IMG/VR virus record: IMGVR_UViG_3300014205_000187
Location: 1-64,000 of that record
DNA from: a virus
Taxonomy: Duplodnaviria > Caudoviricetes
Direction: 5' to 3' (one strand)
Length of the DNA stretch: 64,000 bases
The notes beneath the pieces are model-generated. The model saw only the letters and a list, made by a program, of their open reading frames with translations, had not been told where the DNA came from and made no database searches. Position numbers and translations under genes: made by a program. Positions 54,174 to 61,341 of the stretch are shown here, piece by piece. Each line of letters starts with the position of its first letter. Position 1 is the first letter of the stretch.

Positions 54174-55943
54174 ATGGCTACTCCAATTGGAACATACGCA
54201 AGTTCGACAGGCAAAGATGATCTCATAAGTGCGCCTTTCTGGGCTAAAAAGCTCGGTAGAACATTCAAGGCTCTCTTTAACCCAGATTCCCCTACAGCTA
54301 TGCACCCTGCCTCTGAACCTCGTGACTCTCTGGTCATGACAGGTTTGACCAATGCAGATTCTCTAGCTTCTATGGCTAATGCCTGGAGAGTCCATCAAAC
54401 TCGAAAATCTGTCTATCAGGACATCGAACGGATGGATTCTGAAGATGAGATGGTGGCAACAGCTCTCGATATTATAGCCGACTGTTCTGTATCTTATACC
54501 GATACCAGCGGATTCCACTTCAAGATTCGATCTGATGATGCTGAAACTCAAAAAGTACTCCACGCTCTCGAAAAAAGACTCGATCTGCACAATGAGATTT
54601 GGCAAATATGCAGAGATATGGTGAAGAATGGTAACGATTTCCGAGAAGTGGTCATAGATAGACAGACAATGAAGATCGTTGCGTTCAAACAGACCATCTC
54701 TTATCAGATATACCCTAAAACCAACAAACGTGGAGATAAGCTGCCTGGCTGGGTAGTCAAAGAAGACGGCGACATCTACATGTCCAACGGCAAAGAATTG
54801 GAGCTTGAGGAGTGGCAGATTTGTCCATTCATCTTCGGTTCCAAAAAAGGTTTCCTGGCATCCCCACCTCTTGCGGCTGCTCGTAGAAACTGGATTCGTC
54901 TGACAAAGATGGAAGATGGTATGGCTGTAGCTCGACTTATCAGAGCTTACGACAAAATGGTTCACAGGATTCCGGTCAAGCCCGAAATGCCTGTAACCGA
55001 CATCATGAATCGAATCAGGATGTATAAAGACAGCATCAGCAAGAGGAGAATCCTCGACAGCGATGGTATGATGACGCAGGTTGACAATAACCTGGACGTT
55101 CAAACAGACTTTTATCTGCCGGATGACGGCTCCGGTCGAGGTGGAGTCGATCTACTCTCAGCAAATAACACTCAGCTTGGAAACTTGAATGACATTATTT
55201 ATCATCGAGAAAAACTCCTCACCCGTCTTCAGGTTCCTATCGCATATTTGCAGATCACCACGGCTCAGAAAACTCACATAGCTTCTGGAGCATCGTCTCA
55301 GAAAGCCGATGTAGAGATTCAATTTGCTCGTATGCTTCGACGTGTACAGCGTCAACTTCTCAAAGGAATCCATCGACTTTGTGATCTGGAATTGATGCTC
55401 AATGGTATTACTCCTGAGCGTGGTAGCTACAAAATCGAAGTCACTGAGATCAATACTGTAGACCTCAAAAAAGATGCCGACATTGAACTCACTTATGCTC
55501 AGGCAGCCGTGTTCTTCGTGGAAGCGTTCGGAGCACTACCTCCTGAACTCATCGCTGAAAAGTTCATGCATCTTGATAACGATCAGCAAAAACTTCTGGA
55601 TACATTCCTGAAAACCAGCGGTGCCAGACTCACAGAGGCCAAGATTAAAGGGGCTGAAGCTGCTGGACAGCCTAAACCTGCTCCTGGGTCTGATGCTCTA
55701 CCGAAAAAAGGCACTGGAAACTCTACAAAAAATAGAGCAGCCAGGAGTGGAGAACAAAAAGGCACCAAACAAAGTATCCCTCTGGAAGCCTTTGTTGACG
55801 TTATGTATGATCTCGCTGAGGGCATAAATGAAGACTTCAGAAATCAAGGCATAGAAGTCCCTGAGTTGGACGAAAGCCATAGGAATGTGATTCGAGCAAA
55901 CCTGGCCTCCATAATTCAACGCGATAATTTGGTTCTTGAGTAA
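54174..55943 (+). CDS. portal protein, T4 gp20-like
   Basis: ALDIIAD, MEDGMAVARLIRA, DFYLP..G.G, DIIY...L...LQVP, FAR..RVQ. Confidence 0.85.
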   Translation: MATPIGTYASSTGKDDLISAPFWAKKLGRTFKALFNPDSPTAMHPASEPRDSLVMTGLTNADSLASMANAWRVHQTRKSVYQDIERMDSEDEMVATALDIIADCSVSYTDTSGFHFKIRSDDAETQKVLHALEKRLDLHNEIWQICRDMVKNGNDFREVVIDRQTMKIVAFKQTISYQIYPKTNKRGDKLPGWVVKEDGDIYMSNGKELELEEWQICPFIFGSKKGFLASPPLAAARRNWIRLTKMEDGMAVARLIRAYDKMVHRIPVKPEMPVTDIMNRIRMYKDSISKRRILDSDGMMTQVDNNLDVQTDFYLPDDGSGRGGVDLLSANNTQLGNLNDIIYHREKLLTRLQVPIAYLQITTAQKTHIASGASSQKADVEIQFARMLRRVQRQLLKGIHRLCDLELMLNGITPERGSYKIEVTEINTVDLKKDADIELTYAQAAVFFVEAFGALPPELIAEKFMHLDNDQQKLLDTFLKTSGARLTEAKIKGAEAAGQPKPAPGSDALPKKGTGNSTKNRAARSGEQKGTKQSIPLEAFVDVMYDLAEGINEDFRNQGIEVPELDESHRNVIRANLASIIQRDNLVLE

Positions 55944-56705
55944 ATGATTGAGATTATCAACGGTGACTGCGTGGCCGAGATGGAAAAACTCGGCAAACAA
56001 TCTGTCAATTGCATAGTCACATCTCCCCCTTACAACTTCGACATCAACTATAATGAATACGATGATGGCATGCCCCGAGACAAATACTTAGACTGGCTCG
56101 TAGACGTGGCTCATTCGATGCACAAGGTCTTAACCAAGGATGGCAGCATCTTTCTAAACGTAGGATTCAAACCCACAGACCCCTGGTTGCCTTATGATGT
56201 CTTAAATGTGTTTAGACGCACGTTCTACGCTCAGAACCAGTTCATCTGGGCCAAAAGTGCCTATGTTCCTCAAGCCAAGAAAACCTATGGACATTTTCGT
56301 CCACTCAACTCTCCACGATTCGTTAATCGATGCTGGGAGTTTGTTTTCCATCTCACCAGAACCTCTGATGTCGTTCTTGATCGATTGGCTTTAGGAGTTC
56401 CTTACGAAGATAAAAGCAACAAGCGTCGTTGGAGTAATCCTGATGATCTTCGATGTCGAGGAGATGTATGGTTCATTCCTTATGAGACAAAACAGAAAAA
56501 GGGTAAACATCCGGCAACATTCCCGCCGAAGTTGGCGATGTATGCTTATGCTCTACATGGTCTTGACCGAATAGAGCTTGCGATGGACCCGTTTGTTGGA
56601 GAAGGAAATAGTGCTGTGGCCGCTAAAAAATTGGACTTGAACTTTGTTGGTATCGACATCGACTCTTTATACTGTGAAATAGCGAGAAAAGCTGTAAAAG
56701 GCTGA
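55944..56705 (+). CDS. beta-class amino DNA methyltransferase (probably N4-cytosine)
   Basis: TSPPYN, HPATFP, DPFVGEG. Confidence 0.9.
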   Translation: MIEIINGDCVAEMEKLGKQSVNCIVTSPPYNFDINYNEYDDGMPRDKYLDWLVDVAHSMHKVLTKDGSIFLNVGFKPTDPWLPYDVLNVFRRTFYAQNQFIWAKSAYVPQAKKTYGHFRPLNSPRFVNRCWEFVFHLTRTSDVVLDRLALGVPYEDKSNKRRWSNPDDLRCRGDVWFIPYETKQKKGKHPATFPPKLAMYAYALHGLDRIELAMDPFVGEGNSAVAAKKLDLNFVGIDIDSLYCEIARKAVKG

Positions 56706-56754
56706 TAAAGAATACGCCCCTTCCTCATCAGCCTTTTACATCGTCACCAACCAA

Positions 56755-56844
56755 TTATGTTATTACGAGTTTGTACTTACTGATAAAATAGGTGATTAGG
56801 ACACCTACCACAAATCCTACTGCACCAGCTCCCAGATAATACAT
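56755..56844 (-). CDS. 29-aa single-pass membrane peptide
   Basis: GAGGTG SD, TGCTATAAT promoter, MYYLGAGAVGFVVGVLITYFISKYKLVIT*. Confidence 0.7.
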   Translation of the reverse strand: MYYLGAGAVGFVVGVLITYFISKYKLVIT

Positions 56845-56921
56845 GATGCTCACCTCAAGCACATTATAGCACATTCAATAAAAAACACATCAGTAGTAAT
56901 ACCTGTTTTGTCTGAAATGGG

Positions 56922-56950
56922 TTGACAGTTAATTATCTATCCATTATACT
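56922..56950 (+). promoter_or_regulatory. consensus sigma70-type promoter
   Basis: TTGACA-17bp-TATACT. Confidence 0.8.
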
Positions 56951-56989
56951 GAAAATGTAGAACAGACATCTAACTAGGAGGCAACAAAA

Positions 56990-58021
56990 ATGAAAAGCAG
57001 AGTCGAATCACAGTTCGTTCAGCACGGAGATATTGGAGCCGTTTATGGCGGCACCATCGTTGATAACTCTTTGAGCATCGATGAAGCTCTCAAAGAATCT
57101 GGTCTCGACTGGGAAGTCGGTGTCGATAGAGTCAGAATGGCAAAGAAAACAGGTGGCAAGGTTATTCCTGGATTCTTCGCCACGTATCGAATGGACACCG
57201 GAGACCCGCTCGGAATTGTTAAGACACGATACAATCCGGTGCAGAATCGTGATGCCTTTGCATGGTTGAGATACATTATCGGTGTAGACGGAGCCTGCGT
57301 CACATCTGCCGGTGCGCTGCACAAAGGCCGATACACTTGGGTCTGTATAGACCTTGGTGGATTTGATGTCTTGCCTGAAGACGCTGTTCGGAAACGCATG
57401 CTGATTCTCAACTCACATGATGGTTCCTCGAATATCCTGGTGCAGCTCCTTCCTCATAGGATAGCTTGCCAGAACATTTTGAACTTCTCGTATGGAGTCA
57501 AAAAAGGTGACGGAGACGAAAACTATGGAGGCGGCAGCGACCCATTCAAGATTCGTCACACTGGCACAGCGATGATTAAGCTGTCTGAAATCCAGCGAGT
57601 CATCGGGGTAGCCAATACAAACTTCGATAGAGTTCAGGCATCTTTCGAGGCATTCAAATCTACTACTGTCACTCCAGAACAAAACGATGCTATCATCTAT
57701 GCCGCTCTGGGAGTGACAGACGAAGATCGAAACCTGTACAATGCCGGGGAGTTTGAGAAGACTCCTCAGTGGGTCAATCACTTCGGTCTTATCAACGATG
57801 TCATCGAAAAAGGCCCCGGCTCTGACATCAAAGGTGTCCGAGGAACGGTCTGGGGAGCATTCAACGGCATCAACAGCTACTTCGATCATATCCGAACTGT
57901 CAGAGGTTCTGAGAAGAATCCTGACAACGCCATCGAAAGCAAGTTGATGGGTCACTCGGCGAAAATGAAGGTCAAAGCATTCGATGCCTGTCTCAACGCC
58001 GTCGAGATTCTCAAAAATTAA
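56990..58021 (+). CDS. DUF932 protein
   Basis: GLDWEV, YNPVQN, NSHDGS, RIACQN, IRHT, GTVWGAFN. Confidence 0.9.
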   Translation: MKSRVESQFVQHGDIGAVYGGTIVDNSLSIDEALKESGLDWEVGVDRVRMAKKTGGKVIPGFFATYRMDTGDPLGIVKTRYNPVQNRDAFAWLRYIIGVDGACVTSAGALHKGRYTWVCIDLGGFDVLPEDAVRKRMLILNSHDGSSNILVQLLPHRIACQNILNFSYGVKKGDGDENYGGGSDPFKIRHTGTAMIKLSEIQRVIGVANTNFDRVQASFEAFKSTTVTPEQNDAIIYAALGVTDEDRNLYNAGEFEKTPQWVNHFGLINDVIEKGPGSDIKGVRGTVWGAFNGINSYFDHIRTVRGSEKNPDNAIESKLMGHSAKMKVKAFDACLNAVEILKN

Positions 58022-58176: not shown

Positions 58177-61100
58177 ATGGCGAGACTCCTTGCAAAACCG
58201 AAGTCCCGGCTTTTGGTCACTCAAGTGGCTAAGAGAAAGGATGTAAGTCCTGATACGGGAGAAAAGAAATACGGTGATGTCAAGTTCGCTGACCCGACGA
58301 ACAGTAAGTATCCGATAGACACTAAAGAACATGCAAAAGCGGCCTGGAGTTACATCAACAAGTCTAAAAACGCTGCTAAATACAGCGCGTCAGACTTGAA
58401 GGGAATCAAAAGTCGCATTAAGACCGCTTGCAAAAAGTTTGGTGTTGAAATCTCTGCGGACGAACAGGCAGTCTTCGAGCATGACCCGATGATGGAAGTG
58501 ACTCAGAGCCACTACTACATCGATGGAAGCTATGAAGACCACTGCTCCAAAATCTCGGCAGCTTTCAAGCAGTGGCGTAGGATGGAAGAGTATTGGGATT
58601 ATAGGTGGGCCAATATCCTTGGTATTACCGATACCTCGATCTACTTCTACACTACCGACTGGGATTCCACAGAGCCGGAATACTTCGAGATTGGCTACTC
58701 TGTTGAAGGTTCAAAAGTAGTCATAAACGGTGAAGTCCAACGGGTCGATGTAAAACTCATGGTTGACACTCTGGCTGTGCCTGATGACGATGATGAGTCG
58801 AGCATACAAGGGGACGACACACAAACCGGAGAGGAGCAGAAACCGATGGAAACAAAACAGGATACAGTGCCCGATGAGTCGGCCATCACTGATGCTGCGG
58901 TTGCGGCCCCTGCTCAAATTGGCAGTCCTGCGCCGAGTGGAACTGGCAAGAAAACCGATGCTGAGACCAAAGGTTCTTCCGTGGAAGACCCTGCCGCCGA
59001 TGCTAACAGCAATAAACCGGCAGATCACAGTGACGGTGAGGGGGCCAGCGAAGAGGCTGCCGATGGCAGCAGCAAAACTGCCGTGAAAGAAGCACTCGAT
59101 ACAACGGCACCGGGTTACAAGGGTGAACCGGCTGGCACCGATGGAACTCCTGAACCTTACGCTGGTCAGTCTGACAAGCGAGAAGCTCAACAGGGTGTTC
59201 CTTACGATCAGGCCGGACAGTCGATGTGCTACATCCAGAAAGTCGAAAAGACTACTGGAGCTGATGGCAAAACCCTCATGAAAATGCAGGGTATCGCCAC
59301 CAGAGGCGACATCGTAAACAAGGTAGGCCAGGTCTACCCGTTGAGCGTTTGGGAGAAGAATCTCCCTGAGATGAACAAGCAGGCTGCGAACGGCAAGTTC
59401 ATCGGAAAGCTCGAACACCCAGAAATGGAACAAGGCTTGGTAGATACCGCTATCAAGTTTGACCGATTTTACCTCCAGGGAAGTGACGTGTGGTTCGAGG
59501 CTACCGTCGTTCCCACGGAACCTCACGGTAAAAACCTCCAAGCTCTGCTCGAAGCTGGAGTTCAGGTTGACATGTCCACTCGTGGATATGGCACGTTCGC
59601 AATGCAAGATTGGCGTGGCACCGAGCGGCCCGTCATGCAAGATGACTTCGTTTGCACAGCTATCGACGCTGTGTGGCACGGAGCATCTTCCGGCTCTGGC
59701 GTGAAGTCCACTTCTTACCAGAGCGACCCTAATCTCGAAAAAGGAGAGCAAAAACCAGTGGAAACCAAAGACACCACCACTCAATCCGATGTTCAGGTAA
59801 AGGCTGCTGCAATCAGAGCCAGTGCCGAACTCAAACAGACTAGGGCCGCTCTTCTGGGCGATGCCGGTCTGAACGAACTGGGAATGAAGGCTTACCAGAC
59901 TGCACTTGATAAGTGCGATAGTCTGGAAAACCTCATCGTTACCAGTGAGACGCTGCTTCCGCACCTTCAGGCTACATTCCCTGCGGCCACAGGTGACGCT
60001 CAGGAAGTGACCCAGAGCGCAACTTACAGTCCTACATTCTTCAAAAAGCAGAATCAGGAAGAGGCTGCTCCGCAGAACGTGGGCGAATTGCTTGACCGTA
60101 TGGTAGCCGATCTGCCGGACCATTACGAAGGTCAAGCCGTCAATCCCAATTTGCCGAGCCACTTCAGCTCCCCTCGGGCAGCGTGTAAGAGGCTCATGGT
60201 CAATATCGCACGGGAACAGCAAGGTTCATTCTCCGGTCGCAACGCCGCTCTCGGCCTCTTGGCTCTTGAGCAGGGCAAGATTGACCGGGCGCAGGATATT
60301 CTCTTGCAAAGCCTCGCAACCGGCGCAACCATCGCTGATGGAAACGCTGATGGTGGTGGTGCTCCTTTGAGCAACTACCTCATCTTCCCGTTGGTCAGAC
60401 GTGTATTCCCCATGTATATCATGGGTATGATCGCTAGCATCCAGCCGCTCGACAGGCCGGAAGGTAAGATTTTCTTCCTCGATCAGTACCGTGTAGACGG
60501 TTCTGCTAACGAGACAAGAATCGACCTGAACACTTCGAGCAATCCGTTCAATTCTTCGTTTGCTGACAACGCCACTGAAGGTTCGGCGGCTATGCAGATG
60601 AGACTCCGCTTGACGAGTGCCCTGGTTCAGGCGCATACCAAGAAATTGGGCGCGTCCTGGTCACTCGAAGAAATGCAGGATTTGAGAGCCTACCACGGTC
60701 TCGATGCTGCACAGGAGCTTCTCGGAGGCGTCGCTCGTGAGATGGCTTTGGAGTGGAACAAGGAAGTCCTGGACGACATGCTGGCTCAGGCTACAGCGTC
60801 CGCTTTGACCTTCGGAACTACCATTCCGGCTACTGGGTTTACTCAGCAGAAGGATTGGGACGAGTATCTGTGGGTCTACCTCAACAAGCTCGATTCGGCC
60901 ATTTTCTCAAAGAGAAATGGGGCTATGACTCACATCATAGCTGGCGTCGATGCTGCTCTCGCAATGAGCAAGTCCATGCGCGGCGTCTTTACGTTCAACG
61001 CCAACGATGATGGCGTTGATGGAGAGATTTATCCGGGAACCACGTTCTACGGAACAGTCTCTATCCCTGGTGCTGGTAAGTATAAAGTTCTGAGAACGAA

Positions 61101-61341
61101 CTTCTGGTCTACCGGCACGACAAACGGCTCGAAGATTCTTGGTCTCCGCAAGGGTGCCGAGTGGTCTGATACGCCGTACATCTGGGCACCATACACCGAC
61201 TATGTGACTCCGATGCTTACTGACCCGGCTGACTTCAGCCAGAAGCAGGGCATCATCAGCAGAGCCGCAAAGAAGGTCGTGGTCGCAGACGCGATGGGGA
61301 CCATCACCGTCAACAGCGGCGTGGGCGAGCTTGTCAGCTAA
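58177..61341 (+). CDS. head polyprotein: DUF6582-like + prohead protease (gp21-like) + scaffold + major capsid protein (gp23-like)
   Basis: KYPIDTKEHAKAAWSYIN; GKLEHP, STRGYG; FPLVRRVFP, IQPLDRPEGKIFFL, WSLEEMQDLRAYHGLDA, YIWAPY. Confidence 0.9.
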   Translation: MARLLAKPKSRLLVTQVAKRKDVSPDTGEKKYGDVKFADPTNSKYPIDTKEHAKAAWSYINKSKNAAKYSASDLKGIKSRIKTACKKFGVEISADEQAVFEHDPMMEVTQSHYYIDGSYEDHCSKISAAFKQWRRMEEYWDYRWANILGITDTSIYFYTTDWDSTEPEYFEIGYSVEGSKVVINGEVQRVDVKLMVDTLAVPDDDDESSIQGDDTQTGEEQKPMETKQDTVPDESAITDAAVAAPAQIGSPAPSGTGKKTDAETKGSSVEDPAADANSNKPADHSDGEGASEEAADGSSKTAVKEALDTTAPGYKGEPAGTDGTPEPYAGQSDKREAQQGVPYDQAGQSMCYIQKVEKTTGADGKTLMKMQGIATRGDIVNKVGQVYPLSVWEKNLPEMNKQAANGKFIGKLEHPEMEQGLVDTAIKFDRFYLQGSDVWFEATVVPTEPHGKNLQALLEAGVQVDMSTRGYGTFAMQDWRGTERPVMQDDFVCTAIDAVWHGASSGSGVKSTSYQSDPNLEKGEQKPVETKDTTTQSDVQVKAAAIRASAELKQTRAALLGDAGLNELGMKAYQTALDKCDSLENLIVTSETLLPHLQATFPAATGDAQEVTQSATYSPTFFKKQNQEEAAPQNVGELLDRMVADLPDHYEGQAVNPNLPSHFSSPRAACKRLMVNIAREQQGSFSGRNAALGLLALEQGKIDRAQDILLQSLATGATIADGNADGGGAPLSNYLIFPLVRRVFPMYIMGMIASIQPLDRPEGKIFFLDQYRVDGSANETRIDLNTSSNPFNSSFADNATEGSAAMQMRLRLTSALVQAHTKKLGASWSLEEMQDLRAYHGLDAAQELLGGVAREMALEWNKEVLDDMLAQATASALTFGTTIPATGFTQQKDWDEYLWVYLNKLDSAIFSKRNGAMTHIIAGVDAALAMSKSMRGVFTFNANDDGVDGEIYPGTTFYGTVSIPGAGKYKVLRTNFWSTGTTNGSKILGLRKGAEWSDTPYIWAPYTDYVTPMLTDPADFSQKQGIISRAAKKVVVADAMGTITVNSGVGELVS

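Follow-up and report, generated by a model that had tools for sequence, protein, structure and literature searches.

Positions 1 to 64,000 of the IMG/VR virus record IMGVR_UViG_3300014205_000187 (Duplodnaviria; Caudoviricetes), hereafter the window, are part of a 106,380-bp contig and contain an open reading frame (ORF) for a 1054-residue protein, in which a prohead protease related to gp21 of phage T4, a scaffold-like region, and a gp23-type major capsid protein follow one another in a single chain. We think it probable that this gene encodes a self-processing polyprotein whose gp21-type protease (family S77) cuts after glutamine (Gln) rather than after glutamate (Glu). The protease belongs to a known family; cleavage after Gln, a specificity that we infer from sequence and that concerns predicted sites, would probably be new within that family. 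The proteases of T4, phiKZ, 201phi2-1, and SPN3US are all described as cutting after Glu in the available text of two accounts (PMC5694885, PMC9026906), one of which calls the autocleavage of T4 gp21 a major gap (PMC9026906).

Profile searches of the product against Pfam recovered a DUF6582 domain (PF20223; residues 16 to 94, 5.8e-33), a Peptidase_S77 domain (PF03420; residues 355 to 505, 2.8e-12, 47.0 bits against a cutoff of 27), and a gp23 capsid domain (PF07068; residues 796 to 1036, 3.4e-30), and PHROGs matches were to a head maturation protease (phrog_207, 7.1e-25) and a major head protein. The S77 domain is the sole protease domain found, with no Pfam or PDB match in the polyprotein to the chymotrypsin-like two-barrel fold. 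A search of 5.8 billion clustered proteins gave 80 matches, of which 68 fused polyproteins (the product itself counted) were aligned; these homologs show 35 to 80% identity, and many lie on contigs of about 100 to 115 kb. A profile made from this alignment matches the T4 gp21 structure 5JBL at 1.5e-13 and the gp23* chains of 5VF3 at 3.8e-18, the latter match including the FPLVRR and QPMDRP stretches. The protease triad H414/S467/D497 is intact and aligns with that of T4, its residues being kept in 67, 68, and 68 of the 68 homologs, respectively. An AlphaFold2 model built from the same homologs (mean predicted local distance difference test score [pLDDT] of 68.8) has confident domains at residues ~45 to 101, 112 to 194, 335 to 502 (the protease, ~90), 541 to 605 plus 626 to 714 (a helical scaffold), and 743 to 1054 (the capsid, ~80 to 93 over residues 760 to 1054). 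Between or beside them lie segments with a pLDDT of <50, namely, residues 103 to 111, 195 to 334, 503 to 540, 606 to 625, and 715 to 742, which together comprise 287 of the 1054 residues.

Gln residues at the joints of the polyprotein

The initial annotation had pointed to seven Gln-Ser (QS) dipeptides in linkers and at domain boundaries and to none in the capsid fold. All seven are present in the contexts described (Gln residues 110, 331, 348, 515, 536, 613, and 711), with zero in residues 712 to 1054; five of them (110, 331, 515, 536, and 613) fall within the segments of low pLDDT, and Q711 lies two residues past a modeled helix (702 to 709). The bare count in a single protein is not significant, as 8.8% of 20000 shuffles reach 7 (p 0.09) where 3.9 are expected from composition. 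The enrichment relative to the rest of the proteome that the annotation had proposed to look for was nevertheless recovered: the pre-capsid part has 9.8 QS per 1000 residues versus 2.2 in the other 127 ORFs of the 106-kb genome, as called by an in-house script (4.4-fold), and Gln is followed by Ser in 16% of instances versus 6.3% in those ORFs (binomial p 0.017).

The seven dipeptides differ in conservation, which is strong for four of them and weak for two (331 and 348). Gln 515, at the end of the protease, is present in 68/68 homologs, with Ser next in 67, and Gln 711, ahead of the capsid, in 68/68, where it is followed by Ser in 58, Ala in 6, Asp in 2, and Gly and Asn in 1 each. Gln 613 and Gln 110 are each found in 58/68 (with gaps in 6 rows at the latter), and Gln 110 is retained, followed by Ser, Asp, or Asn, even in homologs with only a ~35-residue leader ahead of it. 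Gln 536 is present in 38/68, whereas Gln 348 (24/68; as QS in 17/68) and Gln 331 (8/68; as QS in 3/68) are not conserved to a comparable degree. Thus, of the AGQSM and SYQSD sequences that had been proposed to bracket the protease, the latter stands as the C-terminal boundary, while the conserved N-terminal boundary is not at Q348 but at Q339-G340, where Gln occurs in 66/68 homologs amid a variable context and is followed by Ser in 31 and Gly in 29.

Several further Gln columns share this behavior. Q699 is present in 65/68 homologs and G700 in 67/68; Gln 625 is present in 53/68, being followed by Asn in this phage and mostly by Ser in the homologs; and the column of G316 has Gln in 41/68. In one subclade, an insertion doubles the capsid site (…DILTQ-GAEYALQ-SL…). 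A scan for residues that are at least 85% conserved amid variable surroundings returned 18 positions, four of which are Gln (110, 339, 515, and 613); the only polar residues among them are Gln, S516, and K315, and the rest are hydrophobic, aromatic, Gly, or Ala. Each of the domain joints has an invariant or nearly invariant Gln, and a conserved Glu is found at none of them.

To view the same signal without reference to individual columns, all 400 dipeptides were counted in linker sequence from a set of 38 homologs reduced to <70% identity, with rows of <900 residues left out. QS ranks first, with 305 occurrences versus 84 expected (3.6-fold; z 24), the next being IL (z 9.7), and each homolog has 4 to 15 linker QS. 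In the folded domains of the same 38 proteins, QS is at expectation (65 versus 57.8), and Glu-Ser (ES) is depleted in their linkers to 0.59 of expectation. At the position two residues before the linker Gln (P3, with Gln as P1), Leu (3.8x) and Val (2.2x) are overrepresented, as are Thr, Lys, and Tyr at P2. The predicted site motif is [L/V]-x-Q↓S (the arrow marks the proposed scissile bond), i.e., the L/I-x-E rule of T4 with Glu replaced by Gln, and P1' would be a small residue (S, G, A, D, or N) and not strictly Ser. A preference for Ser at P1' is described for SPN3US in the available text of one report (PMC10052503).

The pattern extends beyond the close homologs. A distant clade of fused IMG/VR proteins at 35 to 39% identity (L023, L024, L025, and L027) has Gln at both the protease and the capsid boundaries (WQLQ↓S, FLDQ↓S, VLFQ↓D, and WMDQ↓A) and also at the N-terminal protease boundary (WVLQ↓G and WLAQ↓G). 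The distant Gln-type fused forms likewise retain Q699-G, with variation at the preceding E698.

The T4 R55 column in Glu-type and Gln-type relatives

The T4, S-PM2, and Melnitz proteins, translated from deposited records, offer a direct comparison with relatives having Glu at the equivalent places. Ahead of the capsid fold, these phages have FLTE↓A, MLNE↓V, and FLSE↓A, respectively, where the phage described here has ILLQ↓S; after the catalytic Asp, they have ITE↓S at +19 (T4) and IME↓G at +17 (S-PM2 and Melnitz), where this phage has SYQ↓S at +18. The gp23 cut is documented in T4, and the gp21 tail cut is only expected. As the initial annotation had supposed, ILLQ↓SL lies at the place where the gp23 prodomain is removed: measured to the shared FPLVRR/MVRR anchor, S712 is 25 residues upstream and the E65↓A66 site of T4 30. 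Unfused T4-like capsid genes from metagenomes also have L-x-E at this place (ALSE↓T in L029 and L030; LLRE↓S in P0070).

A HMMER search with residues 340 to 530 retrieved 1619 relatives at E ≤0.001, and the best 150 of these (representatives at 50% clustering) plus the query gave a set of 151 S77 domains. After the catalytic Asp, their tails are of two kinds, D-x-V-x-x-G-A-S-x-G-S … Q↓S and D-A-V-x-x-P-S … E↓S. The Arg of an N-x-N-x-R-x-Y-P loop (T4 R55) is present in 51/51 cleanly Glu-type representatives, whereas the Gln-type enzymes have Gln, Glu, Tyr, or Val in its place. In this phage, the loop (T4 N51 to P58) keeps N381, Y387, and P388 and has Q385 in the Arg column; across the 68 homologs, this column is never Arg (Q, 36; E, 16; F, 6; V, 4; Y, 3; I, 2; K, 1). 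A second position, two residues before the catalytic Ser, is Gly in 51/51 Glu-type enzymes (T4 G138) and Asp, Glu, or Asn in the Gln-type ones (D465 here). The 45 domains of the 151 that do not have the Arg show a Gln-only tail in 38 cases, both tail motifs in 4, neither in 3, and a Glu-only tail in 0. The 106 with the Arg show a Glu-only tail in 63, Gln-only in 5, both in 12, and neither in 22, with 4 unscorable.

The capsid maturation site, which lies outside the protease domain, follows the same division. The N-arm anchor could be located in 42 fused representatives, and Gln plus a small residue occupies the site in 36/36 of those having neither Arg nor His at column 385. All three with Arg (P0158, P0164, and P0201) have no such Gln and show FVE↓S, WVE↓T, and QME↓S; at the place of Q699↓G, P0158, P0201, and P0160, which has His in the Arg column, show T-x-E↓G, and P0164 shows TKT-G. 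The linkers of the 36 fused forms without Arg or His have 196 QS versus 77.7 expected, and those of the three with Arg have 21 ES versus 10.9 expected and 2 QS versus 2.7.

In a FastTree tree of the 151 domains, computed with the two trait columns masked, 44/45 of the enzymes without the Arg form one clade (support 89), which unites with a fused sister group with a support of 88. This sister branch has five tips and keeps the Arg (His in P0160), and 4/5 of its members are fusions of 894 to 923 residues with Glu sites. Since fusion is also seen in the Glu-type sister forms, the arrangement of the head kit in a single chain predates the change to Gln and does not depend on it. The order of events suggested by the tree is that the Gln-type clade holds both the fusion and the acidic residue ahead of the Ser in common with the Glu-type sister group, with loss of the Arg coinciding with the appearance of Gln sites. 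It is likely that loss of this loop Arg, next to the acidic D465, was the cause of the switch. The Arg is inferred to sit in the S1 pocket, where replacement of R55 by Q385 would leave a P1 carboxylate with no charge partner and D465 would disfavor such a carboxylate.

Processing model and alternative explanations

The processing that we envisage begins with assembly of the procapsid through the C-terminal capsid domains, which would place the N-terminal 711 residues of each chain inside the shell. For every capsid subunit, the procapsid would need room for these 711 residues, which would afterwards have to exit. The protease domains concentrated there would cut [L/V]-x-Gln↓small sites at Q110, Q339, Q515, Q613, and Q711, with further cuts probably at Q699 and Q536 and possibly at Q625, which would separate the protease, the DUF6582 module, and the second domain from the chain and break up the scaffold. 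The scaffold pieces would leave, and the capsid protein would then start at S712 or G700. As a guess, the domain of residues 112 to 194 and the DUF6582 module may be retained as internal proteins. For each comparison that we ran, the most convincing reading is the proposal of the initial annotation that a Gln-cutting protease processes its own polyprotein, and one refuting observation that it had named, a lack of conservation of the QS sites in homologs, was made for residues 331 and 348 but not for the four strongly conserved sites.

Several points weigh against this interpretation. The Arg/non-Arg state changes only twice on the 151-domain tree, which gives one independent contrast; the contingency p-values (Fisher p 1e-23) are therefore not independent support, and caution on INDEPENDENCE is called for, as the coherent picture rests on essentially one historical switch. 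The cut sites and the Gln at P1 are predictions from sequence, for this phage and for its relatives, as is the placement of T4 R55 in the S1 pocket. The patterns defining Gln-type and Glu-type tails were written after inspection of the data, and the raw QS count of the single protein is, as noted, not significant. The phiKZ protease gp175, a proven Glu cutter, aligns only around the His motif (E 0.089) and by eye may be without the Arg. Inside the folded protease, too, there are conserved Q-G and Q-A pairs (Q371-G, Q434-G, and Q455-A), so that not every such pair can be a site. An equimolar (1:1:1) output of protease, scaffold, and capsid would also be unusual. Finally, a few homologs have Glu or Ala at the Gln sites (at site 110, two with ED and one with AD; a few at 613 and 536), and the protease may accept both Gln and Glu.

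This last point leads to an alternative that we hold to be unlikely, namely, a relaxed specificity in which the enzyme cuts after Gln and Glu and Gln is merely preferred at the structured joints. It would accommodate the two ED rows at site 110, the four rows with Glu and the TPQE-QA-type forms at site 536, a DE↓T in the portal tail of one relative (L008), the Glu-rich composition of the linkers, and the presence of Glu and not Gln at column 385 in 16/68 homologs. It fits poorly with linkers in which ES is depleted while QS is enriched 3.6-fold and with the lack of a conserved Glu at any joint, including E698, which is replaced by Ser, Tyr, Ala, Phe, His, or Ile in the distant Gln-type forms. 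The latter replacement also bears on the quite improbable alternative of a still Glu-specific protease that cuts at unconserved linker Glu residues (e.g., A-L-E698↓Q), with the Gln residues serving in folding or scaffold contacts. The characterized S77 proteases covered in the available text of two accounts all cut after Glu (PMC5694885, PMC9026906), there are many Glu residues in the linkers, and LLALE698-Q, found in 67/68 members of the close clade, fits the A-x-E rule of the phiKZ type. We rejected A-L-E698↓Q as a universal cut site because of these replacements: the distant L023-L027 clade has Ser or Tyr for E698, which removes the only serious Glu candidate, while Q699 and Q711 are kept. 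Further, no Glu is conserved after the protease (KSTSYQS in the query and VTYQS or AKYQS in many homologs), the Arg of all 51 cleanly Glu-type enzymes is absent, and the sister group that keeps the Arg has Glu at the same joints.

A highly improbable explanation dispenses with proteolysis after Gln altogether and attributes the dipeptides to a signal in the DNA or for translation (for instance, duplicated cassettes for internal starts) or to chance in Gln/Ser-rich linkers. Its attraction lies in the two EVTQS sites (58494-58509 and 60003-60018), which are identical at 15/16 nucleotides, GGAAGTGAC[T/C]CAGAGC, in the insignificance of the QS count taken alone, and in the internal start of T4 gene 21 (feature table; available text of PMC9026906). 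However, the codons at the conserved sites vary synonymously among homologs (AGY and TCN for Ser; CAA and CAG for Gln), which points to selection on the peptide and not on a DNA signal and led us to reject a DNA-level origin of the twin EVTQS for the conserved sites. The peptide motif is also kept at 35% protein identity. Chance is at odds with QS being at expectation in the folded domains and first of the 400 dipeptides in the linkers.

Genomic context, implications, and comparison with known systems

Features of the polyprotein and its predicted products, and the predicted site in the portal tail (window coordinates; arrows mark predicted scissile bonds)
Feature	Coordinates	Strand	Residues and remarks
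Head polyprotein ORF	58177..61341	+	1054 aa; DUF6582, small domain, acidic linker, S77 protease, scaffold, gp23-type capsid protein
DUF6582 module	58222..58458	+	aa 16-94; Lys-rich, helical; Pfam; helices 50-101 in model
EVTQ110↓S111, predicted cut site	58504..58509	+	between DUF6582 and second domain; pLDDT <50 segment 103-111
Second domain	58510..58758	+	aa 112-194; alpha+beta; pLDDT ~88; helix 119-136, strands 146-183
Acidic disordered linker	58759..59178	+	aa 195-334; pLDDT 24-42; contains YAGQ331↓S
AQQ339↓G340, predicted cut site	59191..59196	+	conserved N-terminal protease boundary
Protease, as predicted after release	59194..59721	+	aa 340-515
QAGQ348↓S349	59218..59223	+	weakly conserved; confident model part, 4 residues ahead of first strand
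Candidate specificity residues Q385 and D465	59329-59331; 59569-59571	+	protease
Catalytic H414, S467, and D497	59416-59418; 59575-59577; 59665-59667	+	protease triad
SYQ515↓S516, predicted self-release site	59719..59724	+	protease C-terminal end; pLDDT <50 segment 503-540; 18 residues past catalytic Asp
Scaffold-like helical region	59722..60309	+	aa 516-711; helices 538-600, 627-709; disordered 606-625 between
TTQ536↓S, VTQ613↓S, and KKQ625↓N, internal scaffold sites	within 59722..60309	+	
LEQ699↓G700, possible second cut site	60271..60276	+	12 residues before Q711
ILLQ711↓S712, predicted capsid maturation site	60307..60312	+	25 residues before FPLVRR anchor
Predicted mature capsid protein	60310..61338	+	aa 712-1054; gp23-type HK97 fold; zero QS
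TKQ533↓S534, portal C-terminal tail	55770..55775	+	possible extra substrate, weak

The polyprotein gene lies 2.2 kb downstream of a Portal_T4 (PF07230) gene (54174-55943). A gene for an N6/N4 DNA methylase (PF01555) and a DUF932 gene are found between the two (55944-58021), where T4 has its small core proteins gp67 and gp68. The whole protein was matched best, in a collection of 50,697 deposited phage records, by T4-like cyanophages and the Methylophilales phage Melnitz at 24 to 27% identity; we found no cultured relative in these records, and a standalone Gln-type protease (P0089) was matched at best at 35%. The TKQSI in the portal tail, also named in the initial annotation, is present at Q533 but only partly conserved: QS or Q-G occupies the aligned column in 10/15 portals, Gln lies one column earlier in 2, and it is absent in 3. 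A few residues upstream of this KQ↓S, the portal tail has an S/T-x-E-Q motif (RSGEQ528, 55755-55757), the Gln of which is present in 15/15 portals and is followed by varied, mostly non-small residues. Other substrates were sought in the terminase, portal, methylase, DUF932, neck, and tail genes (9 to 17 distinct orthologs each), where the conserved Gln residues are mostly followed by hydrophobic ones; a small residue follows only at portal Q443-A and at Q149-G of the product of 65200-65979, both inside folds.

The N-terminal part of these polyproteins is variable. DUF6582 is optional, as many homologs of about 960 residues are without it, and it also stands at the N terminus of HK97-type fusions of Peptidase_S78 (PF04586) with Phage_capsid (PF05065) (P0078, P0081, P0077, and P0080). 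The module thus travels with head polyproteins of two protease families; we found no paper naming DUF6582 in the literature searched. The distant Gln-type fused clade has another small basic N-terminal domain; P0069 is recorded with a ChaB domain (PF06150), and the L023, L024, L025, and L027 proteins start MPYA…LP..VK.LP, so that the N-terminal module of the Gln-type fusions looks exchangeable. The second domain (residues 112 to 194) gave no match in the Pfam search. A standalone Gln-type protease of 235 residues (P0097) ends in …ITSWGTQ, exactly where the self-release site has its predicted P1 Gln; a contig end is possible, but it looks as if this gene stops where the fused forms would be cut.

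The after-Glu rule is in use for predicting which cargo is packaged and which mature proteins make up the virions of new phages. If our interpretation is true, such predictions would fail for a large uncultured clade, which accounts for 44 of the 150 best representatives at 50% identity. This clade would also represent a natural, single-lineage change in specificity at P1 for which a candidate residue can be named (T4 R55 versus Q385), providing a possible orthogonal protease/site pair. That a T4-type lineage has its complete head kit (protease, scaffold, and capsid) in a single chain, in turn, raises the question of how a 1:1:1 stoichiometry is tolerated. In the available text of one report, bacterial immune sensors with Glu-containing bait loops, e.g., EcCdnG of a cyclic oligonucleotide-based antiphage signaling system (CBASS), are described as being cut by prohead proteases, and a sensor loop with all Glu changed to Gln as giving no response to T4 gp21 (PMC12991175). 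One might imagine that the clade as a whole changed its cleavage rule to Gln in a single step, through the loss of one Arg, that all sites in the head proteins followed, and that the pressure possibly came from such sensors, to whose Glu-bait tripwires a Gln-cutting phage would be invisible; the Q385/R pair would then be a natural portable switch between two orthogonal protease/site systems. This extended scenario seems to us rather unlikely.

We found no report of a Gln-specific prohead protease in the literature searched, which was mostly without subscription journals and without supplements, and the mass spectrometry tables for SPN3US and phiKZ in such supplements could list non-Glu cuts; at the level of titles and abstracts in the same literature, no relevant T4-type head fusion was found. 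Among known systems, the closest is the gp21/gp22/gp23 set of T4 (MEROPS S77; 5JBL, 5VF3), with a homologous protease and capsid, a His-Ser-Asp triad, the order protease-scaffold-capsid, a site ~18 residues after the catalytic Asp and another ~25 to 30 before the capsid N-arm anchor, and an aliphatic P3. It differs in that three genes are joined here in one ORF with two extra N-terminal modules, the predicted P1 is Gln, R55 and G138 are replaced by Q385 and D465, and the capsid is without the T4 insertion domain, its predicted mature form having 343 residues versus 456 in the gp23* chain of 5VF3. The giant-phage proteases (phiKZ gp175, 201phi2-1 gp268, and SPN3US gp245) are, according to the available text of two reports, similar in being S77-type enzymes, though diverged, and in having a short motif and self-cleavage at the C terminus (PMC5694885, PMC10052503). 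The P3 preference drifts within this family (S/A/G-x-E versus A-x-E versus L/I-x-E); unlike the protease predicted here, they still cut after Glu and are encoded by separate genes.

The uncultured Glu-type fused sister group (P0158, P0164, P0201, and P0160) also has protease, scaffold, and capsid fused and an acidic residue ahead of the catalytic Ser and is distinguished by Arg (His in P0160) at the R55 column, by enrichment of ES and not QS, and by a capsid joint of the form x-V/M/H-E↓S/T/D along with T-x-E↓G in three of the four. The delta domain of HK97 gp5 and the S78 fusions offer a parallel, in that a scaffold function is joined to the capsid protein and taken off by the head protease, but they involve the S78 protease family and another capsid subfamily. 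To our knowledge, the HK97 protease does not cut after Gln. Picornavirus 3C and coronavirus 3CL resemble the predicted enzyme only in a P1 Gln with a small P1' and in processing their own polyprotein; their fold and nucleophile are unrelated, and the likeness is one of analogy and not of membership. ILLQ↓S at the capsid joint resembles the LQ↓S rule of these 3C/3CL proteases.

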